A stretch of 12,969 bases of DNA from the IMG/VR virus record IMGVR_UViG_2529292908_000006, positions 1 through 12,969 of that record, one strand, 5' to 3'. The first letter of the stretch is position 1; the number at the start of each line of letters is the position of its first letter. This document shows, piece after piece, positions 3,153 to 12,969 of this stretch. The DNA is from a virus (taxonomy: Duplodnaviria > Heunggongvirae > Uroviricota > Caudoviricetes). Made by a program: the position numbers and the translations under genes. The notes beneath the pieces were generated by a model that saw only the letters and a list, made by a program, of their open reading frames with translations, was not told the DNA's origin and searched no databases.

Positions 3153-3514
3153 TATGCTCCAGCCTCCGGTGCTTTTGGCATTACTGCCCAGTGAGTGATA
3201 TTGACGTTTTCAAGGTCCCCGACCTGAAATGTCCACTGCCATTCTCCGGTTTCTTTTTGTCCCCAGGTGTACCAGAGAGAACGCCAGCCAATTAGCCAGC
3301 CTTCTCCGTTAGCATCGAATAACAAAACACTTTCATTTGCTGGTGGCAGTTCAGTTGACACTGGTATTACTTTGTTTTCCTGTGCTGCACATTTAGCTTC
3401 AAGCGCATCGAATTTACGCACCAGGTATTCAGCATCTGTTTCATTTACTTTCAGATCTCGCGGTACACATCTCCCACGAAGAAACCCTTCCATTTCGAAA
3501 ACATTCATGCGCAT
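3152..3514 (-). CDS. yfdS: prophage early protein of unknown function, 120 aa, YfdS-like
   Basis: ATG at 3514..3512 with GGAG about 9 nt upstream; overlaps the upstream gene's stop by 10 nt; Trp-rich C-terminal half. Assignment by order and size only. Confidence 0.6.
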   Translation of the reverse strand: MRMNVFEMEGFLRGRCVPRDLKVNETDAEYLVRKFDALEAKCAAQENKVIPVSTELPPANESVLLFDANGEGWLIGWRSLWYTWGQKETGEWQWTFQVGDLENVNITHWAVMPKAPEAGA

Positions 3515-4041
3515 TTGCGTAACTCCGATAACTCGTTAAAGCGTTCCATAAACATCCCGTAGGCATGGCCCGGTGCCAGTGGAATCACGTTGAACATCTC
3601 TGTTGCCGGGATACCTTCCAGTACAGGCCAGAAAGAGCCATCATCAAGCCCGAGATCGCGGCGTTCGGTTGCCAGCATGATGAGATCGGCATATTTCACG
3701 GGCGTACTCATAACTGGGGGTAACCCGTATTTCTCACGGATTACGGCGTCTATTTTTTCTTCCATTTGTTTATAGTCAGGAAGAAGGCGTTTCAGTGGTG
3801 CGGGAATGTCCTGGCAATACGCTTCTGTTGCATCATGCATTAACGCTTCAAAAGCAAATTCCTGCGGCACCAACTGGCTGCAAAGAACCGCATGTTGGGC
3901 GACGCTGTAGAAGTGCGAAAGATGACCGGCAAAGCGACAGATATTTGAAAGGGAAACCGCGATATCGTTAATATCGATGTCGTCTTTATTTATCCTGTCA
4001 TAATAAAAATGCTTCCCGGAAAAAGTTTTAATAAATGACAT
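3505..4041 (-). CDS. yfdR: HD-domain phosphohydrolase (5'-deoxynucleotidase-like), 178 aa, YfdR-like
   Basis: Start chosen at ATG 4041..4039 (MSFIKTFSGKHFYY) because it has SD GGAGA 7-8 nt upstream; the longer ORF from 4068 has none. Contains spaced His and His-Asp motifs (VAQHAV ... LMHDATEAY) typical of HD hydrolases. Confidence 0.7.
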   Translation of the reverse strand: MSFIKTFSGKHFYYDRINKDDIDINDIAVSLSNICRFAGHLSHFYSVAQHAVLCSQLVPQEFAFEALMHDATEAYCQDIPAPLKRLLPDYKQMEEKIDAVIREKYGLPPVMSTPVKYADLIMLATERRDLGLDDGSFWPVLEGIPATEMFNVIPLAPGHAYGMFMERFNELSELRKCA

Positions 4042-4134
4042 TTTGTTCTCCACGTATATGCGCTGCACCGCGCTGAATTCTGGTAAAAAGAATCCCTCAC
4101 CATCCGGCGATTATTGAGTAAATTACGTTTCCAT

Positions 4135-4156
4135 AAATGCCCCCGCAGGGGCATTT
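4135..4156 (-). other. intercistronic RNA hairpin with 9-bp stem and UNCG-type loop (not followed by a U-tract)
   Basis: aaatgcccc-cgca-ggggcattt between the yfdQ-like stop (4169) and yfdR-like start (4041). On the minus-strand transcript the loop reads UGCG. No U-run follows, so likely a stability or processing element rather than a terminator. Confidence 0.4.
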
Positions 4157-4168
4157 GCAGTAATGAAA

Positions 4169-4993
4169 TCAGGCGGTGAAAGTACCAATAAAGGTTTCTA
4201 CTTTGCTGTCCTTGAATTTCTCAACAAGCAGATCACGAAATTCGTTAGCCATTTCTTCCTGCACCGCCTCCAGCTGAATAATGCGCAGAACCAGTACAGG
4301 ACGATCGCCAGTGATAATACTGAGGCGTAATTTAAACGGACGTTCTTTCAGACCTTCAAACGGAACGCATTTAAATTCAAATGCCACTGGCATAATGTCT
4401 TTGGTCTTCGCTTCGACAGACTCCATCAGGGAGCGTTTGCCGCTGAAGTCATTATCTTCAAAATCAGCGGTCTGGTTTGCTTCAATCGTGATTTTACGGA
4501 CAGCCGCAGCCGCTTTTGTTGCCTGAATAGCGTCACCATTAGCATCAAAGCCCACAAGATAGTCGGCCCAGTCTTCAATCCATTCTGCCAGTGACTTCTG
4601 GGAGTTACGCTCGCCGTTAACAGACAACAGAGCAGAGAACGGTGCTGTCTTTTTCAGTTTGAGTGTGGCGGTGTTATCTGCGTGACCTGGTTCATCAATA
4701 GTACCCAGGTTAAGCACACTGACGGCACGCATATTATCAGCATCGATAAAGCAGCGGGTGCCTTCATCTGCAAGATCTTTAGAATAACGGGTAAAGTCAT
4801 CGATGCTGGTAGTGGAAAGCGCACCACGGAAACGGAAGCGATTTAAATTAAATTTTTCCAGATCATGAATGCGGAAATTCTCAGGCAATGCCACAGCATC
4901 GGCACCAATCTTACTGATAATTTCATTAACACCCTGAGCAGAAATAAGGGCATGGATTTGATTAATTGCGGTTGCGTCTAAGTTCTGAGACAT
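4169..4993 (-). CDS. yfdQ: prophage early protein of unknown function, 274 aa, YfdQ-like
   Basis: Long clean ORF; ATG 4993..4991 preceded by GAGGA about 8 nt upstream. Size and position match my recollection of YfdQ. Confidence 0.65.
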
Positions 4994-5058
4994 AATAAGT
5001 CCTCACTATATAAAGATATTCAGTGATGAGATAAATAATCAGTTAATTAAAAACGATA

Positions 5059-5421
5059 TTAACGACCTGCTGCGCGGAGTTTTCCGTCAGGTTCACCGGC
5101 AAGAGTCAGTAACTGTCCCTGGTCTTCCTGCAGAATAGTCAGGCGACCACCGCGATTGACATACATCGGCGTTTCGGTGGTGTCTTCTTCGGAAATTTTC
5201 CCGCGGTTAGTCGGGCGAACATATGAGAGTTTGTGTTTGATTTTCACACGGTTCTCATCAAATGGTTCGATTTCCAGGTTGAGTGAGACCTTACCTTTGG
5301 TTTTCGTGTTCATCACACCGGAAGCGACTTCACTGAGAACTGCGCCGATTTTGGTTTCAAATACGCCGCCGTCCAGCTCCCCGATAAATGCCTGCACATC
5401 AGTACTGCGTTCGCTAGCCAT
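5059..5421 (-). CDS. yfdP: prophage early protein of unknown function, 120 aa, YfdP-like
   Basis: Start at ATG 5421..5419 (MASERSTDVQAF) with SD GAGGAG about 9 nt upstream. The ORF track extends to 5739, but the extension is Arg/Cys-rich, lacks an SD and overlaps a structured GC-rich segment, so I treat it as non-coding. Confidence 0.65.
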   Translation of the reverse strand: MASERSTDVQAFIGELDGGVFETKIGAVLSEVASGVMNTKTKGKVSLNLEIEPFDENRVKIKHKLSYVRPTNRGKISEEDTTETPMYVNRGGRLTILQEDQGQLLTLAGEPDGKLRAAGR

Positions 5422-5470
5422 TTTGCTGCTCCTCATCATATCGACCCTGCAAGGTCGGTTGGTTTCTCCA

Positions 5471-5557
5471 CAAAACAGAGAAGAACACCTGCGGTGACTG
5501 CCGCCCGGATGGATTGGGTTATGAGCCCGTCGTCCGGTGATGTTCTTCTCTGTTTTG
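5471..5557. other. long imperfect hairpin (19 bp stem, 3-nt bulge, 46-nt loop) inside a GC-rich non-coding segment; candidate structured RNA or regulated terminator
   Basis: caaaacagagaagaacacc (5471-5489) pairs with ggtg-atg-ttcttctctgttttg (5536-5557). Region 5440-5760 is open in several frames on both strands with no convincing start or SD. Confidence 0.4.
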
Positions 5558-5859
5558 TAAAAAGAGCGATACCAGCCGGAAGCAAGTGTACAAACTGGTA
5601 CCGCGAGGACTACACACAGCATAAAGTTGTGGTACCGGGTGCCTCCCGGTGCCTGGCGAAGGTTGCACACCAGGCGGGTGGGTATCCACAGAAGGTCGAC
5701 TGTCAGCCTCAACCTTAACCCGCGTGCGCTGAGCCGCATTCACCACAACGCTAAGGATTCTCTCTGGTTGAAAATACTTAGCTGTTATGTGCCTGTCTTT
5801 TCACCACTTCAGGCTCGGTGGTATCTTGGTGTTTTCATATAGCCAAGAAGGAAATAGTT

Positions 5860-6051
5860 ATGACCAAAGAAGAAAAAATTCTTTATTTATTCCAACTATC
5901 GGTTAAGACACACACTGCATATCAGACTGCTGCCATGACATCAGATAAAAATTACAGTACGTCAGAAAACCCGATAGACGACATAAGCAAGCTTTACGAT
6001 AAGTTCGAAGCACTACTCGATAAAAAGTTTGCTGAGGCTGGGCTTGAGTGA
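5860..6051 (+). CDS. small hypothetical protein, 63 aa, acidic and probably helical, AT-rich
   Basis: ATG at 5860 with SD AAGGAAA 8 nt upstream; TGA at 6049-6051. MTKEEKILYLFQLSVKTHTAYQTAAMTSDKNYSTSENPIDDISKLYDKFEALLDKKFAEAGLE. Antisense to the surrounding early-left operon; 3' end overlaps the convergent minus-strand ORF by 39 bp. Confidence 0.5.
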   Translation: MTKEEKILYLFQLSVKTHTAYQTAAMTSDKNYSTSENPIDDISKLYDKFEALLDKKFAEAGLE

Positions 6052-6219
6052 TTGTTGAATAATCGACAAAACCCAACTTAAATTTTCGTCAGTGGGCTCG
6101 ATGCCATGTGCGGTGAGCTCACTTTTCAAAACTCCAAGCAATTCAGAGCTGATTTTCAATATATCTGCTTGATTTCTAACTATTCCCACTTTTTCCTCCC
6201 TTGGTCTACGCGCGGTCAT
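6013..6219 (-). CDS. small hypothetical protein, first ORF downstream of the pL-like promoter (68 aa from ATG 6219; 58 aa from internal GTG 6189, which has a strong SD)
   Basis: ATG at 6219 has no SD. GTG at 6189..6187 is preceded by GGGAGG with a 5-nt spacer (minus strand gaccaagggaggaaaaagtg). N-terminus from the ATG is Arg-rich (MTARRPREEK). No family recognised. Confidence 0.45.
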   Translation of the reverse strand: MTARRPREEKVGIVRNQADILKISSELLGVLKSELTAHGIEPTDENLSWVLSIIQQSLKPSLSKLFIE

Positions 6220-6396
6220 GTTTTACGCCCAAACGACTTCACAGTTATTGTTTAAAATCTGGACTTTCATTTCATACACCTGCTTTAACATGAGTGCCTA
6301 GTGGCACAACATGACTCAACGAATCATCCTGGACTTCATATGCCCCAGGCGGCTACTTCGTGGGCGTCCTGCCTGTTCGTTGTTTCTCTTGGGTAC

Positions 6397-6463: not shown

Positions 6464-7138
6464 TTAGGCTTTGATTTTGTATCTTCTTGGTTTTCCTGAG
6501 AAAATCACTGTACCAATTATAGAGCAATTACCGTTGATCTTAATGTAAGGCTCAGGCCAGTTTGGGTTTAACGCTTTGAGATAACGCTGTGTCCCATCTT
6601 CTATTAACCTTTTGAAGGTGGTTTCACCTGTATCGTGCATCAATGCAATAACGTCGTCACCGTGGCAGGCAGGTACTTCAGGATCGACAAAAATCATGTC
6701 TCCCGGGCGGTACTCATCAATCATTGAATCACCTATCACCCGCAAGATATAAGTCATTTCCCCACAGGGTACAGGGCAGGGATACGTTTCTGCTGTGCTC
6801 AAATCAACCTCAGAATATCCAACTTCTTTCCATGCTCCGGCCTGTACCCATGATATGACAGGGACTAATGTGATTTGTTTATTAGTGATTGAAACATCAG
6901 GTTTTTTTGTGATGTTCGTTGTCTGGTGTTCTTGATCGAGCCATCCGACAGGTAGGTCGAAACATTTTTCGATGTGTCGTGCCATGCTGTCACCGATATT
7001 TTTAGTAGCACCATCTCCCATAAACCTGCTGGTCTGGGTTGGCTCGCGATCAATCATAGTGGCAAAGGAAGAATTCCCGCCAACACCATCTCTCAGTTTT
7101 CTGGCGTTAGACCGCCGGATGTCATGGATTGTTTTCAT
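6464..7138 (-). CDS. cI-like prophage repressor, 224 aa, N-terminal DNA-binding domain plus LexA/S24 autopeptidase domain
   Basis: C-terminal domain has the Ser motif (VIGDSMIDEYRPGDMIFVDPE) and downstream Lys (TTFKRL), and resembles P22 C2 / lambda cI as I recall them (LNPNWPEPYIKINGNCSIIG). Divergent from a Cro-like gene across an operator-containing intergenic region; own terminator downstream. Confidence 0.85.
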   Translation of the reverse strand: MKTIHDIRRSNARKLRDGVGGNSSFATMIDREPTQTSRFMGDGATKNIGDSMARHIEKCFDLPVGWLDQEHQTTNITKKPDVSITNKQITLVPVISWVQAGAWKEVGYSEVDLSTAETYPCPVPCGEMTYILRVIGDSMIDEYRPGDMIFVDPEVPACHGDDVIALMHDTGETTFKRLIEDGTQRYLKALNPNWPEPYIKINGNCSIIGTVIFSGKPRRYKIKA

Positions 7139-7228: not shown

Positions 7229-7402
7229 ATGAAAGCGTATTGGGACTCTTTAACCAAAGAACAGCAGGGCGAGTTGGCCGGAAAAGTTGGCTCAACACCT
7301 GGCTACTTACGGCTGGTTTTCAATGGCTATAAAAAGCCAGTTTTGTGCTGGCTAAAAAACTTGAGCAATGCACGTCAGGTGCAATTACGAAATCTGACTT
7401 AA
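7229..7402 (+). CDS. Cro-like small regulator, 57 aa
   Basis: ATG 7229 with GGAGG 10 nt upstream; divergent from cI across the operators. Called by position and size; the sequence (MKAYWDSLTKEQQGELAGKVGSTPGYLRLVFNGYKK) is only loosely HTH-like. Confidence 0.55.
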   Translation: MKAYWDSLTKEQQGELAGKVGSTPGYLRLVFNGYKKPVLCWLKNLSNARQVQLRNLT

Positions 7403-8118
7403 GACCGGATAACCGCAATGCGTCGAATGTTTATCAGCTTAACGTTGCGAAGCTTCAGGCAGCGGCATTTTCTCAACTGTCAGATTCTGACCCGTCAAAA
7501 TCTGACGCATCAAAATCTGACCCGTCAAAATTTGATGCGTCGAAATCTGGCAAAAAAGCGGGTTTTCACCCGTCAGAATCTGGCGGGGATCCGTCAGTAA
7601 AATCAAAACATGATCCATCAGATAAAAAACCTTCTCGTCCGGACGCTTCGCAACCGGACACGCAGATGGATGAACAGGATTTTTTAACTCGCCATCCTGA
7701 TGCGGTTGTATTCAGCCCTAAAAAGCGCCAGTGGGGAACGCAGGATGATTTGACCTGCGCACAGTGGCTCTGGAAAAAAATCATCGCCCTGTACGAGCAG
7801 GCCGCCGAATGTGACGGCGAGGTGGTTCGTCCCAAAGAACCTAACTGGACAGCCTGGGCAAACGAAATTCGCCTGATGTGTGTGCAGGATGGTCGTACTC
7901 ACAAACAAATCTGCGAGATGTACAGCCGCGTCAGCCGCGATCCGTTCTGGTGCCGTAACGTGCTCAGCCCGTCGAAGTTGCGGGAAAAATGGGATGAGCT
8001 TTCCCTGCGCTTATCGCCGTCCGTCAGCACGCACACAGAAAAACGTGAAGACCCGTACTTCAAAGCCAGTTACGACAATGTGGACTACAGCCAGATCCCG
8101 GCAGGATTCAGGGGGTGA
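7345..8118 (+). CDS. O-like replication initiation protein carrying ori iterons in its 5' part (start uncertain: GTG 7345 or ATG 7666)
   Basis: Position right after cro. Its 5' third encodes a pentapeptide-repeat tract (PSKSD ASKSD PSKFD ASKSG) from 15-bp direct repeats. I recall CPS-53 yfdO being annotated as a defective replication protein O. The GTG 7345 start overlaps cro by 58 nt with a weak SD, so the true start is unresolved. Confidence 0.5.
   Translation: MLAKKLEQCTSGAITKSDLRPDNRNASNVYQLNVAKLQAAAFSQLSDSDPSKSDASKSDPSKFDASKSGKKAGFHPSESGGDPSVKSKHDPSDKKPSRPDASQPDTQMDEQDFLTRHPDAVVFSPKKRQWGTQDDLTCAQWLWKKIIALYEQAAECDGEVVRPKEPNWTAWANEIRLMCVQDGRTHKQICEMYSRVSRDPFWCRNVLSPSKLREKWDELSLRLSPSVSTHTEKREDPYFKASYDNVDYSQIPAGFRG
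7481..7587. repeat. iteron array, about six 15-bp direct repeats (TCARAATCTGRNNNG); putative prophage replication origin
   Basis: cagattctgacccg / tcaaaatctgacgca / tcaaaatctgacccg / tcaaaatttgatgcg / tcgaaatctggcaaa / (gap) / tcagaatctggcggg. Lambdoid origins lie inside the O gene as iterons. Confidence 0.6.
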
Positions 8119-8120
8119 TT

Positions 8121-8456
8121 ATGAGTCTTTTGAATGAAGTTCAGAAATTCATTGAAGCCCATCCGGGGTGTACTTCCGGAGACATTGCGGATGCTTTTGC
8201 AGGTTACTCACGGCAGCGCGTTCTGCAGTCAGCAAGCAAGTTACGTCAGAGTGGGCGTGTGGCTCACCGTTGTGAAGGAGATACACGCAGACATTTCCCG
8301 CGCCTGACTGAGAGAGCGCAGGAGGCGGAACCGCAACCAGTTCGTGAAACCAGACCTGTGCGCAATTTCTATGTCGGCACTAACGACCCGCGGGAGATTT
8401 TGTGCCTGACCCGCCAGGCGGAAGAACTGGAGTCCAGGGGCTTATACCCGTGGTAA
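8121..8456 (+). CDS. hypothetical protein, 111 aa, immediately after the O-like gene; possibly altered at a deletion junction
   Basis: ATG 8121 with SD GGGGGTGA; start is 2 nt after the O-like stop (8116-8118). No family recognised. Its 3' end overlaps the open frame of the tail-fibre fragment (open from 8410). Confidence 0.45.
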
Positions 8457-8505
8457 CCCCCAGACCGGCACACCTGCCACCGATCTGGATGATGACTACT
8501 TTGAT

Positions 8506-8967
8506 ATGTTGCAGGAGGAGCTTTGCAGCGTGGTGGAGGCATCCGGTGCCAGCCTGGAGAAGGGGCGAAACGACCAGTTGCTTACCGCGCTTCGTGCTCT
8601 GCTGTTAAGCCGCAAGAATCCGTTTGGTGATATCAAATCGGATGGCACGGTGAAAACGGCTCTCGAAAACCTTGGTTTGGGAGAAGGTGCTAACTGGGTT
8701 ATGTTACCTGGAGGAATGATAATTCAGCGTGTTTATCTTGGATTTCCTATTGGCACCAATGTAAGACACATAACTTTCCCCCGGTCGTTTACAACAACGA
8801 ACTATTCCATCTCAATTAACTGGAATGATATCGGTACTGTAACAACTGAAACACAATCGCCAGCAAATGTGGCGGTTGTTCATCAAACAAAATCATTAAC
8901 AGGGGCCAGCATCTGGCAGGCAGGTCCCGGAGGATTTAATGTGGACATTATAGCGGTGGGGTATTGA
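8506..8967 (+). CDS. tail fibre protein, 3'-terminal fragment (end of constant region plus variable domain Sv); 5' bulk of the gene is missing
   Basis: Frame is open from 8410 but the first ATG is 8506. Sequence ([29 protein letters not shown] then a variable C-terminus) is typical of Mu/P1/e14-type tail fibres at the constant/variable junction. The crossover site lies within it (8660-8685). Under 100 codons of constant region remain. Confidence 0.65.
8660..8685. promoter_or_regulatory. left crossover site of the invertible segment (Hin/Gin/Pin-family 26-bp site)
   Basis: CTCTCGAAAACC-TT-GGTTTGGGAGAA: 12-bp half-sites around a central TT, fitting the family pattern AAACC-NN-GGTTT. Inner half plus flank (TTGGTTTGGGAGAAGGTGCT) is repeated in inverted orientation at 10400-10419. 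Confidence 0.7.
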
Positions 8968-8968
8968 T

Positions 8969-9397
8969 ATGTACGTATGGAGCGCTAAAGCAAATGGCTT
9001 TTTCCCCATATCGGAGAAAGAAAAATTTGAGGCATCAGGTCTGTGGCCTGATGATGGTGTAATAGTCAGTGAGGAAGAACATAAAAAGTTATTTATGGAT
9101 ATTCCACCAGGAAAACAGATTGGAACACTGAATGGAAAACCAGCACTGATAGATATTCCTCAGCCGACCAAAAAGGAATTAATAGCTATTGCTGAAGTTA
9201 AAAAATCCCAATTACGGGAAAAAGCTGACAGTGAAATATCCTGGCGTCAGGATGCTGTTGATGCTGATATCGCAACTGATGAAGAAGCTACAACTCTCAC
9301 CCAATGGAAGAAATACCGTGTGCTGCTGATGCGTGTTGATACGTCAACAGCACCCGATATTGAATGGCCTACGCCTCCGGCAGTTCAGGCCAGATGA
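8969..9397 (+). CDS. tail fibre assembly protein (Tfa), cassette 1, 142 aa
   Basis: Starts 2 nt after the Sv stop; conserved Tfa C-terminal motif (VDTSTAPDIEWPTPP). Typical Sv-Tfa pairing. Confidence 0.75.
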   Translation: MYVWSAKANGFFPISEKEKFEASGLWPDDGVIVSEEEHKKLFMDIPPGKQIGTLNGKPALIDIPQPTKKELIAIAEVKKSQLREKADSEISWRQDAVDADIATDEEATTLTQWKKYRVLLMRVDTSTAPDIEWPTPPAVQAR

Positions 9398-9965
9398 CAT
9401 CCGGCGCGGTGCTGGTATCTGTTGCCGTCACCGCGTCAATGTAATCCAGCACGGCGTTAAGTCGGGTTGTTTCTGCCTGAGTCAGTTTCCGTCCGGCCTG
9501 TAATTTCAGCTGAATCAGACTAATGGAAGCCATTGTTGCATCAATCAGTGACTGGCGCTGTGCTTCTGCCGCGTCTACTGCGGCACTGTGTTGTGCCTCA
9601 GTGTCTGTCACCCATTTCTCACCATCCCATTTATCGTATGGCGTTAACGGTGAAATCGTGACATAACCGTCTTTGATGGCACCGATATAATCCACTGTAA
9701 CAGCTGCGCCATTTTCGATTGAGTAAACAGTCTCATTGCGATGGTCTTCTTCATAGCTCCATCCCTTACCTGTAAATACTGCCACTCTTCCCGGAATGTT
9801 TTCGCCAGGGTCAATACCAGTGGAACAGGCGGGCATACTTACACCAGTATTAATATATTCATCAGACCAGCCCGTATATTCATACGTTACTGCATCATAA
9901 TAAAAACAACGCATATCGCCCGGCACTGTAGCCAGTCCATTTTCATCAAAAATTGGGGTCATCAT
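9369..9965 (-). CDS. tail fibre assembly protein (Tfa'), cassette 2, 198 aa, inverted orientation
   Basis: ATG 9965..9963 overlaps the Sv' stop (ATGA). C-terminal motif (TSTAPDVIWPELPEA) parallels Tfa. 3' end overlaps the convergent Tfa gene by 29 bp. Confidence 0.75.
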   Translation of the reverse strand: MMTPIFDENGLATVPGDMRCFYYDAVTYEYTGWSDEYINTGVSMPACSTGIDPGENIPGRVAVFTGKGWSYEEDHRNETVYSIENGAAVTVDYIGAIKDGYVTISPLTPYDKWDGEKWVTDTEAQHSAAVDAAEAQRQSLIDATMASISLIQLKLQAGRKLTQAETTRLNAVLDYIDAVTATDTSTAPDVIWPELPEA

Positions 9966-10417
9966 TTAGCCCTCACCAGAAAGTTAAATGCAATATTTCG
10001 CGGTCTGACAGCAACAAAATTAACACCATCTCCTACTGAGTTACTGGTGTACTGAAATCGAGAGAAACCTGGCTGGTGTGCTGATATTCCATCGTAATCA
10101 GCAATCGCATGGCCGGACCCTTCTGGATAATTACCGCCAAATTGCGATAAAGATGTTGCTGCCTGCCAGCTTAATAATGCTCGCCCACTGTCCGCCCCTC
10201 GCCCATCATCCCAGATACGAATGAAATCACCGCGGGCTTCAGGTAATACCAGCGAAGGAAACACTTTTGCCAGCACAGGGTAATCAGTGGCAGAGAATTT
10301 CGCGCCGTTGAACTTCAAAAACACCATGCCGGACCAGCTTTCGATTACGGTATCTGGCATTGCGGCGGACGGCCAGAAGAACGGAACGCCAATAGCTGGA
10401 GCACCTTCTCCCAAACC
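9962..10417 (-). CDS. alternative tail fibre C-terminal variable domain (Sv'), silent in this orientation
   Basis: Sequence (GVPFFWPSAAMPDTVIESW ... GDFIRIWDDGRGADSGR ... NIAFNFLVRAK) is typical of Mu/P1/e14-type tail fibre C-termini. Reads into the right crossover site; shares the LGLGEG junction codons with the plus-strand fibre. The ORF track's extension to 10459 is just the spacer before pin read in frame. Confidence 0.7.
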   Translation of the reverse strand, partial: GLGEGAPAIGVPFFWPSAAMPDTVIESWSGMVFLKFNGAKFSATDYPVLAKVFPSLVLPEARGDFIRIWDDGRGADSGRALLSWQAATSLSQFGGNYPEGSGHAIADYDGISAHQPGFSRFQYTSNSVGDGVNFVAVRPRNIAFNFLVRAK

Positions 10418-10431
10418 AACGTATATGAAAA
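10406..10431. promoter_or_regulatory. right crossover site of the invertible segment
   Basis: TTCTCCCAAACC-AA-CGTATATGAAAA. Its left half plus centre is the exact reverse complement of the left site's centre plus right half. About 55 bp upstream of the invertase start. Confidence 0.7.
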
Positions 10432-10485
10432 TGCAGAAATAACGAGCAAATGGCATCATTCCTGCTTTTACCAGGGGGATTTAAC

Positions 10486-11040
10486 ATGCTTATTGGCTAT
10501 GTACGTGTATCAACAAATGACCAGAATACCGATCTACAACGTAATGCGCTGAACTGTGCAGGATGTGAGCTGATTTTTGAAGACAAGATAAGCGGTACAA
10601 AGTCCGACAGACCAGGACTGAAAAAGCTGCTCAGGACATTATCGGCAGGTGACACGCTGGTGGTCTGGAAACTGGACCGACTGGGGCGCAGTATGCGGCA
10701 TCTTGTCGTGCTGGTGGAGGAGTTGCGCGAACGAGGTATCAACTTTCGTAGTCTGACGGATTCAATTGATACCAGTACCCCAATGGGGCGCTTTTTCTTT
10801 CATGTGATGGGTGCCCTCGCTGAAATGGAGCGTGAACTGATTGTTGAACGAACAAAAGCTGGACTGGAAGCAGCTCGCGCACAGGGACGAATTGGTGGAC
10901 GTCGCCCCAAACTTACACCAGAACAATGGGAGCAGGCCGGACGATTAATTGCAGCAGGAATTCCTCGCCAGAAGGTAGCGATCATCTATGATGTTGGTGT
11001 ATCGACACTGTATAAGATGTTTCCGGTCGGAGATAAATGA
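10486..11040 (+). CDS. pin: serine-recombinase DNA invertase of the Pin/Gin/Hin/Cin family, 184 aa
   Basis: ATG 10486 with SD GGGGGA. N-terminal catalytic motif MLIGYVRVSTNDQ ... VVWKLDRLGRS and C-terminal HTH. Closely matches e14 Pin as I recall it. Adjacent to the invertible tail-fibre segment. Confidence 0.9.
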   Translation: MLIGYVRVSTNDQNTDLQRNALNCAGCELIFEDKISGTKSDRPGLKKLLRTLSAGDTLVVWKLDRLGRSMRHLVVLVEELRERGINFRSLTDSIDTSTPMGRFFFHVMGALAEMERELIVERTKAGLEAARAQGRIGGRRPKLTPEQWEQAGRLIAAGIPRQKVAIIYDVGVSTLYKMFPVGDK

Positions 11041-11355
11041 AACCGCAGGCTCGTCGTATGCAAGAACGTGCTGCGGCTGGCTGGTGAACTTCCGATAGTG
11101 CGAGTATTGAATGATTTCCAACTGTTATCGATTTTGCGTATTTTTTGCATGAGAGGATTTTTACCTCCTCCCACCGATCCTCCATGGCTTTACGCCAGTG
11201 TCTCTGGTCTGCTATGTGCCAAAAGTAGACATTGCTGACATAAAATATATGATTTGACCAACTACAACCGAAGAATAGTCCAATACATCTTGGGTCTACA
11301 TCCAACTAGTTATAGAATCCCGAGTATACATGTTAGTTTTGGACATTCTAATCAC

Positions 11356-11775
11356 ATGAAATATTGCTACCTGATAATTTTAAGCTTGACTATTTCTTCT
11401 GCTCAGGCTGAGACATTTCCCGCCAAGCTAACCTGTAATACGGGTGAACAAATTACTCTTAAAGTTACTGGTCCAGAGCAGCGACTGATCTACACTTCTT
11501 CACTCTATGGAACATTCCATGGATATCTCGATGTATTTAAAGGGTTATCACCTGAGCGTCAATATGAGGTACTTGCCAATATTCATGGAATAGCTCGATA
11601 TAGGGACAGCCCGTTACATTTTACTCTCCTAATGAAACGAACCAATGGTGAGATGGATAATGGCTCAATTATCTATCGATATACCTACCTGAAAGACGAG
11701 CAACTGATTGATGAAGAAGGACATTGCAGTCCGATAAAAGATGGCGGATTTATTGAGGGGAGCAAAAGTTACTAA
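11356..11775 (+). CDS. hypothetical secreted protein, 139 aa, predicted SPase I signal peptide; AT-rich moron
   Basis: MKYCYLIILSLTISSAQA then ETF: Lys N-region, hydrophobic core, AQA cleavage motif, no lipobox. Mature part has two Cys. Low GC against its neighbours. Start taken at ATG 11356 (track ORF begins 11254 without signal logic); SD is weak. Confidence 0.5.
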   Translation: MKYCYLIILSLTISSAQAETFPAKLTCNTGEQITLKVTGPEQRLIYTSSLYGTFHGYLDVFKGLSPERQYEVLANIHGIARYRDSPLHFTLLMKRTNGEMDNGSIIYRYTYLKDEQLIDEEGHCSPIKDGGFIEGSKSY

Positions 11776-11908
11776 GGCCAAGCGTATAGTTATCGGTATG
11801 CTTACCGTTTGCAGACCCCACGGCGCTCAGGCAGCCCGCTCCGTGCCAATAGCAGGCATTACTATGGTCTGTTCCGTAACAGTCATTTTTACCAAAGTAT
11901 ATGGTTAG

Positions 11909-12969
<1,061 letters not shown>

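Follow-up and report, generated by a model that had tools for sequence, protein, structure and literature searches.

DNA inversion switches of the Gin/Cin/Pin class exchange 3' coding ends and not a promoter. In Shigella boydii, a gene for a Pin-family invertase, pinB, together with an invertible fibre segment (the B segment; GenBank D00660) of a defective E. coli/Shigella prophage, was reportedly described by Tominaga and co-workers in 1991. The invertible segment of the e14 prophage flips in clonal K-12 cultures (PMC4272514, PMC12529663), and in the latter study, which discusses stfE/StfE2, the e14 StfE2 blocks T2 adsorption (PMC12529663). For the Hin invertase, about 100 bp separate the enhancer from the closest site, and Q151, R154 and L155 in helix 1 of the DNA-binding domain are the residues contacting Fis (PMC3798978).

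The locus analysed here, located in a window of 12,969 nucleotides (the whole stretch of DNA under study), contains a switch of the well-known e14/Pin type and therefore of an already known kind. We consider it highly likely that this is an allele of the PinE/P-segment switch of E. coli e14, of the Fis-dependent Hin/Gin/Cin/Pin class, and that it is most likely still flipping in cultures of the strain, since all of its parts are intact and the deletion that truncated the surrounding prophage is recent. The features of the locus are listed in Table 1.

TABLE 1. Positions of the features of the invertible locus and its surroundings in the window.
Feature	Position	Strand	Description
Deletion junction	8445-8448	.	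4-bp microhomology TACC, yfdN-like codon 111 joined to fibre codon 22
Sc remnant (constant fibre part)	8445-8671	+	codons 22-97; aligned with intact fibres XJ55, L019 and K-12 stfP
Longest ATG-initiated ORF of the truncated fibre	8506-8967	+	153 aa (Sc remnant and Sv); called in GCA_000249635.2
Left (fibre-proximal) crossover site	8660-8685	+	26 bp, CTCTCGAAAACC TT GGTTTGGGAGAA, core 8672-8673
Invertible segment	8674-10417	.	1744 bp between cores, 1748 bp with cores
Sv, variable fibre tip, now joined to Sc	8674-8967	+	Gp53-like_C, Pfam PF21882, 24.9 bits, equal to the cut-off
Tfa, tail-fibre assembly protein, partner of Sv	8969-9397	+	142 aa; Pfam Caudo_TAP E 6.6e-33
Tfa', tail-fibre assembly protein, partner of Sv'	9369-9965	-	198 aa; Pfam Caudo_TAP E 2.4e-26
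Sv', alternative tip, collar-type, now facing pin	9962-10417	-	weak Pfam Collar match
Right (pin-proximal) crossover site	10406-10431	+	26 bp, TTCTCCCAAACC AA CGTATATGAAAA, core 10418-10419
stfE-type leader in the fixed flank	10420-10459	-	MMPFARYFCIFIYV, ATG at 10459
pin, serine DNA invertase	10486-11040	+	184 aa; Pfam Resolvase E 1.3e-51, HTH_7 E 1.4e-14
Putative Fis-dependent recombinational enhancer	10504-10575	.	pin nt 19-90, by homology only

Invertase, Crossover Sites and Invertible Segment

Regarding the enzyme, Pin combines an N-terminal catalytic domain with a C-terminal helix-turn-helix, as do the small serine recombinases, contains the catalytic residues Y5, R7, S9, D64, R65 and R68, matches the Gin structure 3UJ3 over residues 1-181 (E 8.9e-95) and is identical to K-12 PinE at 178 of 184 positions (97%), with six residues differing. 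Residues Q150, R153 and L154, in the stretch ...EQWEQAGRLIAAG..., align with the Fis-contact residues of Hin. The exact protein was detected in 1599 blocks of the collection, and the Pin of the intact prophage L019 is identical to it. The P1 record annotates nt 19-90 of cin as an enhancer, and the homologous 72 nt of the window pin are identical at 68 positions to pinE and at 56 to cin. This stretch contains two candidate Fis cores of the form G-N13-C (10507-10521 and 10556-10570; pin nt 22-36 and 71-85), the centres of which are 49 bp apart, with about 96 bp between the centre of the first and the right core; the Fis sites of Hin have a centre spacing of 48 bp.

In both crossover sites, a 2-bp core separates two imperfect 12-bp half-sites, and the sites are inverted relative to each other with the same core dinucleotide (TT on the left, AA on the right), an architecture that agrees with the P1 cixL/cixR and e14 sites. 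The 26-bp invertase-site pattern was found in the window at these two positions only, with 0.00 expected by chance. The sites overlap an inverted repeat of 23 nt with 96% complementarity (8669-8691 and 10400-10422), within which the exact 20-mer TTGGTTTGGGAGAAGGTGCT is present at 8672-8691 (+) and 10400-10419 (-), with an expectation of 0.00 in 200 shuffles; a chance inverted repeat was rejected, as none of the 200 shuffles reproduced it. Compared with the e14 sites of K-12, the left site is identical at 26 of 26 positions and the right site at 25 of 26, the variant base being a T-to-A change. The crossover point is located in CTT (8671-8673), which encodes the first Leu of ...ENLGLGEG. The six residues differing from PinE and the right-site base, which could be held against activity, are sequence variants, both of which are found in the intact prophages L005, L008 and L019.

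The segment holds two convergent fibre-tip/assembly-protein cassettes, Sv-Tfa and Tfa'-Sv', and pin is located beyond the right site. A protein identical to Tfa' is present in 118 blocks of the collection, and Sv' is 38% identical to K-12 StfE. Inversion in silico brings Sv' in frame with Sc, the product ending in ...VRAK before the stop codon. The ATG of the stfE-type leader, a homologue of which is present in K-12 e14, reads over the right site and is in frame with whichever cassette faces pin (currently ORF 9962-10459); this 165-aa ORF was detected in the source assembly as its sole occurrence and is therefore uninformative on populations.

The first-pass annotation had described a complete Pin-type switch, comprising two identifiable crossover sites in inverted orientation, a segment of about 1.75 kb with two oppositely oriented cassettes, a pin gene with an intact catalytic motif and a crossover within the LGLGEG codons. 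These points are borne out, the enzyme, both sites, the enhancer region and both cassettes being intact and essentially those of the e14 PinE switch, and the comparison with known sites that it had proposed gave the agreement with e14 and P1 described above. It had also noted 20 identical bp, a length that is correct; they are made up of the core (2 bp), the inner half-site (12 bp) and another 6 bp, and not of the inner half-site followed by 8 bp.

By analogy with the family, Pin dimers would bind both 26-bp sites, and the bound sites would synapse with the enhancer that Fis occupies inside the 5' portion of pin; Pin would then cut both sites at the central AA/TT, followed by a rotation of 180 degrees resulting in inversion of the 1744 bp. 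The constant fibre part (...ENLGLGEG) would be joined either to Sv (Gp53-like, followed by Tfa) or to Sv' (collar-type, followed by Tfa').

Truncation of the Fibre Gene and Prophage Context

The switch is carried by an E. coli prophage remnant at tRNA-Thr (thrW), adjoining proA, which has a CPS-53-like early region and from which all head, tail and baseplate genes are absent. No virion can be built from this remnant, and the original purpose of the switch has therefore been lost. The deletion junction was defined by comparing three sequences, namely the window, its yfdN parent from K-12 and the unbroken fibre of L019. The yfdN-like product of the window is identical to YfdN at 105 of 111 positions, up to residue 111, and BLAST matches to intact relatives either end at 8448 or begin at about 8445. 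A microhomology-mediated deletion took out everything from yfdN-like codon 112 through fibre codon 21.

The fibre of intact relatives is itself short (194-264 aa); that of the window lacks its first 21 codons, including the start codon and ribosome-binding site. The longest remaining ATG-initiated ORF uses the same start Met as the K-12 CPS-53 pseudogene yfdL and has no obvious ribosome-binding site. Alignment with intact fibres thus agrees with the truncation of the fibre that had been noted previously, and the description of the switch as orphaned overstates the loss of the fibre itself, of which 21 codons and the start are missing; the real loss is that of the whole virion module. A conserved stfE-type start is also kept in the pin flank.

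The deletion is recent, since the segment is identical to copies in intact prophages at 1744 of 1744 positions. The remnant-specific junction was detected in one NCBI assembly and in one Logan read-set contig (common to two samples); it was absent from 5,426 complete E. coli genomes, where matches did not extend beyond 8448 or began only at about 8445, and an exact-pattern scan of the genome contigs of a collection with one genome per species gave 0 matches. Strain 81, which is similar in size, was considered and rejected, as it has a different rearrangement with IS1, IS3 and IS5.

Evidence for Inversion

Both orientations of the identical segment are present in intact prophages of other genomes, with the exchange at the core. 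The segments of L018 and L021 are exact reverse complements, each identical to the window segment at 1744 of 1744 positions, and lie between identical flanks (2012/2012 and 2000/2000). In a second flip pair, L015/L016, also with identical flanks, a G/T polymorphism of the inner half-site travels with the segment and the outer half-sites are fixed, which locates the exchange at the core. The segment of L019 (1743/1744 identical) is in the orientation opposite to that of the window. Collinearity with the window as given was observed for 23 complete E. coli genomes, and collinearity with the window inverted in silico for 26. Duplicated fibre genes recombining with each other were rejected as an explanation, the exchange point being the 2-bp core of canonical invertase sites. 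The inversions in other genomes could be older than the deletion.

Regarding read sets, segment-only contigs of 1748 nt, bounded by the core dinucleotides, are present in many of them; these contigs begin at TTGGTTTGGGAG and many finish at CCCAAACCAA. One such contig (L048) was found in at least 20 samples and has one mismatch against positions 8672-10419 of the window. Similarly, a 97-aa edge product was detected in 100 blocks, 99 of them on contigs shorter than 2 kb, and a 151-aa edge product in 72 blocks, of which 70 are on such contigs. The contig SRR491164_2362, which spans the remnant-specific junction and is 100% identical to positions 7623-8691, stops exactly at 8691, the last base common to both orientations, which is indirect evidence of inversion in this remnant; the inverted left junction would read 8661-8691 joined to CCAGCTATTG. 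A search for a right-flank read-set contig by means of the 47-aa ORF 11632-11775 returned the source assembly and two unrelated contigs, none from SRR491164. The assembly GCA_000249635.2, which matches the window with 100% identity along 10,464 nt, contains one orientation only.

Given the end of the remnant contig at 8691, the flip pairs and the segment-only contigs, the switch in the remnant is very probably still active, and on the same sequence comparisons it is very likely that both orientations coexist. The earlier suggestion that both may exist in a population is in line with the flip pairs (L021/L018 and L015/L016) and the segment-only contigs.

Alternative Explanations and Significance

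It is unlikely that the switch is structurally intact and frozen in this strain, an inert relic in which Pin is unexpressed or is disabled by the six substitutions or the right-site T-to-A change. The single orientation of the deposited assembly would fit such a relic, as would the result that a consensus promoter was not found between the right site and pin; however, an identical Pin and the same right-site variant are present in the intact prophage L019 in opposite orientation, the remnant-specific Logan contig ends exactly where the two orientations diverge, and segment-only contigs are widespread. That this contig break arose artificially during assembly, from another copy of the site elsewhere in the genome or from a coverage gap, is distinctly unlikely, even though E. 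coli genomes often hold several Pin-type prophages sharing the left site: a second copy with the 31-mers of 8661-8691 would create an in-branch and a contig end before 8691, whereas the contig is unbroken from 7623 over the junction at 8445 to 8691, and a random coverage gap at exactly that base is improbable. It is rather unlikely that most of the inversion is due to invertases (PinQ/PinR-like or other Pin copies) that other prophages of the same genome provide in trans, and not to the adjacent pin. This pin is intact, its product shares 97% identity with PinE, which flips e14 alone, and pinE mutants are locked in one orientation (PMC12529663), while PinQ of the Qin prophage flips the e14 segment more strongly than PinE (PMC12529663) and E. 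coli genomes contain a median of 2 and a maximum of 13 Pin-like matches.

A Hin-like regulatory switch, in which a promoter of the segment or a block to read-through would control pin or the ORF at 11254-11775, is extremely improbable. An effect on the downstream gene had been suggested in the first-pass annotation, and terminator-like hairpins are present inside the segment (9401-9415 and 9567-9585, + strand), but a consensus scan of 8674-10417, which is weak negative evidence, detected no promoter-like site and thus no outward promoter of the Hin type controlling a flanking gene. Next to the pin flank, 20 bp remain unchanged on inversion, and two convergent coding cassettes take up the segment, as in the G, C and P segments; the suggested effect is not upheld.

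The e14-type switch, most likely still flipping, has little importance beyond annotation. It would make a strain-specific prophage remnant a live source of within-culture heterogeneity, which would explain why assemblies break at the locus, and it adds to a natural decay series from the intact prophage, via the remnant with an intact switch, to K-12 CPS-53 with one site and no invertase. Its wider relevance is limited to one more candidate for the role against phage adsorption that was recently proposed for Pin switches of cryptic prophages. That the switch has been kept for host use is very unlikely; flipping would then determine which small receptor-binding-domain protein is produced (from the leader at 10459 or the ORF at 8506), and one of these proteins would, with its Tfa chaperone, block the adsorption of other phages, as a phase-variable anti-phage device with a different tip pair.

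Comparison With Known Inversion Systems

The e14 P segment and PinE (stfP-tfaP / tfaE-stfE, pinE) have the same layout as the locus in the window, in the order Sc, site, Sv-Tfa, Tfa'-Sv', site and pin; enzyme and sites are of the e14 type (178/184; 26/26 and 25/26), both loci have an stfE-type leader in the pin flank, and both prophages are defective. However, e14 is located at icd and carries StfP, TfaP, TfaE and StfE cassettes, whereas the window element is at thrW with its CPS-53-like early region. The e14 segment has 1825 bp between cores compared with 1744 bp in the window, 1093 of 1688 aligned positions are identical, and the cassettes differ, Sv' being 38% identical to StfE and Sv being of another type. 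The e14 fibre gene stfP is complete, whereas in the window the first 21 codons of the fibre gene are deleted along with every virion gene upstream of it.

The P1 C segment with Cin and the Mu G segment with Gin belong to the same enzyme subfamily (Cin 83% identical by tblastn; Gin by the structure match, E 8.9e-95), and P1 cixL, CAATCCTAAACC TT GGTTTAAGAGAA, has the same 12+2+12 architecture with an AA/TT core. As in the window, where the enhancer is putative, the enhancer lies within the invertase gene and the fibre C-terminus is exchanged along with the assembly protein. P1 and Mu differ in that the phages are viable, their fibre genes long and their segments about 3-4.2 kb in size, and in P1 cin is upstream of cixL and reads toward the segment, whereas the window pin is on the far side of the right site and points away from it. 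According to the P1 annotation (locus SHFPINB cross-references), the Shigella boydii pinB segment has cassettes like those of Mu and P1 and unlike those of the window. Salmonella Hin is a homologous Fis- and enhancer-dependent serine invertase with 26-bp sites; its H segment contains a promoter controlling flagellin genes, in contrast to the coding cassettes of the window segment, in which no promoter was detected.

In K-12 CPS-53 (yfdN-yfdM'-yfdL'-yfdK-tfaS'), the early genes match those of the window (YfdN 105/111; homologues of yfdP/Q/R/T), the left site is identical, and the same kind of internal deletion fuses early genes with the 3' portion of the fibre gene, with different end-points, K-12 having kept a yfdM fragment. 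The CPS-53 switch is dead, because its pin is gone, as are the second site and one half of the segment (tfaS being a pseudogene), whereas the window keeps the full switch.

Genomic context and deletion junction

The window is matched at 100% over 10,464 nt by contig AIFX01000034.1 (NCBI assembly GCA_000249635.2), and its left 8.4 kb has a match of about 99% in many complete E. coli genomes. The early region contains yfdT/R/Q/P-like genes and shows homology to CPS-53, a cryptic prophage of K-12. The integrase, a single gene of about 370-390 aa in the relatives L002 and L025, is divided into three ORFs in the window; the cause is either frameshifting as the element decays or faulty sequence in the draft assembly. 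A 15/30-bp tandem repeat of 4.3 copies (7486-7549, inside ORF 7345-8118) encodes a KSD(A/P)SK-type repeat of a replication-region protein, and the Logan contig L011 starts at window position 7623, about 70 bp 3' of this repeat.

Intact relatives have Mu-type baseplate genes (Gp45, Gp46, Baseplate_J, Gp48/YmfQ) followed by a short fibre gene encoding 194-264 aa and then the switch, whereas the head, tail and baseplate module is wholly absent from the window. Three-way comparison placed the deletion junction at a 4-bp microhomology, TACC (8445-8448), which joins codon 111 of the yfdN homologue to codon 22 of the fibre gene. Since fibre homology also starts at codon 22, the fibre lost only 21 codons plus its start; the description of the switch as orphaned in the first-pass annotation therefore holds for the 5' truncation and the missing virion module but overstates the damage to the fibre itself. 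In the YfdN (PerC-family) homologue the last 53 residues are exchanged for PW and a stop from fibre sequence, giving a strain-specific 113-aa protein, which was found in one read-set contig only (common to two samples), although this DNA is also present in the source assembly.

Features of the window (positions in nt)
Feature	Position	Remarks
proA	1-1254	
tRNA-Thr	1369-1444	
Integrase beside tRNA-Thr, three overlapping ORFs on the minus strand (132, 162, 152 aa)	1459-2620	
LexA-like S24 repressor	6464-7138	early region
YfdN homologue	8115-8456	early region
Left crossover site, CTCTCGAAAACC-TT-GGTTTGGGAGAA	8660-8685	pattern match
Cassette 1: Sv (Gp53-like_C) + Tfa	inside 1744-bp segment	Pfam
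Cassette 2: Tfa' + Sv' (weak Collar match)	inside 1744-bp segment	convergent with cassette 1
Right crossover site, TTCTCCCAAACC-AA-CGTATATGAAAA	10406-10431	pattern match
stfE-type leader on the minus strand, continuing into 9962-10417	10420-10459	
pin, 184 aa, Resolvase + HTH_7	10486-11040	Pfam
ORF after pin, hydrophobic N-terminus	11254-11775	no Pfam match

Downstream of the switch, homology to pin-bearing prophages stops at about 11076-11217, and some 900 bp containing one ORF precede an IS5-family transposase gene starting at 11977. The counterpart of this ORF directly adjoins a thrW integrase in GCA_017278055.1 (L025), which points to a join with remnants of a second island at 11100-11976, just ahead of the IS5-family element.

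Crossover sites, invertase and reading frames

The switch had been correctly recognized from the sequence and its interpretation was largely right. Its two inverted crossover sites were confirmed by a 23-nt inverted repeat (8669-8691 against 10400-10422, 96% complementary), by the exact 20-mer TTGGTTTGGGAGAAGGTGCT, with one copy per strand in the window and recovered in 0/200 shuffles, and by the 26-bp invertase-site pattern, which matched the left and right sites only. Inversion requires a central dinucleotide that is identical in inverted orientation, as are the TT and AA cores. The shared stretch has the reported size of 20 bp, but its make-up is core (2 bp), inner half-site (12 bp) and 6 further bp. 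Crossover falls, as proposed, within the LGLGEG codons, at the CTT Leu codon of fibre ...ENLGLGEG. The cores are 1744 bp apart and enclose two convergent cassettes, of which Sv' shares 38% identity with K-12 StfE; in-silico inversion of 8672-10419 keeps the frame, the product ending in VRAK and a stop.

A conserved stfE-type leader survives in the fixed pin-side flank (ATG at 10459, MMPFARYFCIFIYV), and its reading frame runs through the right site into the cassette that faces pin at the time, so that a second chimeric ORF is made in each orientation. The suggestion that orientation could affect the downstream gene found no support: no promoter-like sites were detected inside the invertible segment, and orientation makes no difference to the 20 bp next to the pin flank. 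Switches of the Pin class exchange coding 3' ends, moving no promoter.

Regarding the invertase, the catalytic motif is intact as claimed (Y5, R7, S9, D64, R65 and R68), and Pin aligns end to end with Gin crystal structures (E 8.9e-95). Residues Q150, R153 and L154 align with the Fis-contacting residues of Hin, described as specific to DNA invertases (PMC3798978). The inversion enhancer is annotated at nt 19-90 of cin in the P1 record; the homologous stretch of pin (10504-10575), identical at 68/72 positions to pinE and at 56/72 to cin, is a putative enhancer with two G-N13-C cores; about 96 bp separate the centre of the first core from the right crossover point.

Evidence for inversion

Natural inversion is evident among relatives. 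In loci L021 and L018 the flanks are identical (2012/2012 and 2000/2000) and the segments are exact reverse complements, the window segment being identical to theirs at 1744/1744 positions. In a second flip pair, L015 and L016, a G/T polymorphism of the inner half-site changes place together with the segment and the outer half-sites are stationary, which maps the exchange to the core. The closest intact relative, prophage L019, has an identical Pin and a segment identical at 1743/1744 positions, in the opposite orientation. Complete E. coli genomes collinear with the window number 23, against 26 for its form inverted in silico.

It was predicted that a mixed-orientation culture would yield an isolated segment contig spanning exactly 8672-10419. 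The 97-aa edge product (GLGEGANWV...) was matched in 100 blocks of the searched collection, 99/100 with contigs <2 kb, and the 151-aa edge product in 72, 70 of them with such contigs. Segment-only contigs begin at TTGGTTTGGGAG, many terminate at CCCAAACCAA and several are exactly 1748 nt, including L048 (at least 20 samples), with a single-base difference from the window segment. Contig SRR491164_2362 (common to two samples) equals window 7623-8691 at 100%, spans the unique deletion junction and stops exactly at 8691, beyond which the two orientations cease to share sequence. A second site copy elsewhere in the genome is an unlikely cause of this end, since it would have broken the contig before 8691, and a branch after 8691 is predicted by mixed orientations. 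The evidence that the switch is still flipping and present in both orientations is strong but indirect, and it agrees with the literature on e14: clonal K-12 cultures contain the e14 segment in both orientations (PMC4272514), and the segment is about 30% inverted in BW25113, with pinE mutants locked in one orientation (PMC12529663).

Comparison with known switches

The switch belongs to the e14 PinE system, of which it is an allele: Pin differs from PinE at 6/184 residues, there is no difference at the left site, and a single base is changed at the right site, a variant also found in the intact prophages L005, L008 and L019. The system is a textbook Pin switch; Pin was originally described from a defective prophage, and the present remnant is another such case. 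K-12 stfE, homologue of the leader ORF, is annotated as a pseudogene; its inverted form is claimed to block T2 adsorption (PMC12529663). A low probability is given to the least ordinary reading left by the evidence, in which the host would have co-opted the switch to block phage adsorption in a phase-variable manner, on the model of e14 StfE2 (PMC12529663).

CPS-53 of K-12 (L050) is parallel to the window remnant yet further decayed (yfdN, yfdM', yfdL', yfdK, tfaS') and has no invertase but keeps one site identical to the left site of the window (about 5884-5909); this lone site could in principle still serve Pin-type enzymes encoded by other prophages. The internal Met at which its pseudogene yfdL (5545-6063) begins is also the start of the ORF at 8506 in the window. 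A more fully orphaned switch is found in L029 (NZ_LR883050.1, E. coli L1_E925), where the same segment lies between two divergent pinE genes (3416-6369); in this group of human ETEC isolates, which also includes matches H5-H15 and H86-H96, the order is pinE(-), segment, pinE(+), with no fibre constant part and an adjoining Avs2 anti-phage gene, an arrangement that may have arisen when sites in two prophages recombined.
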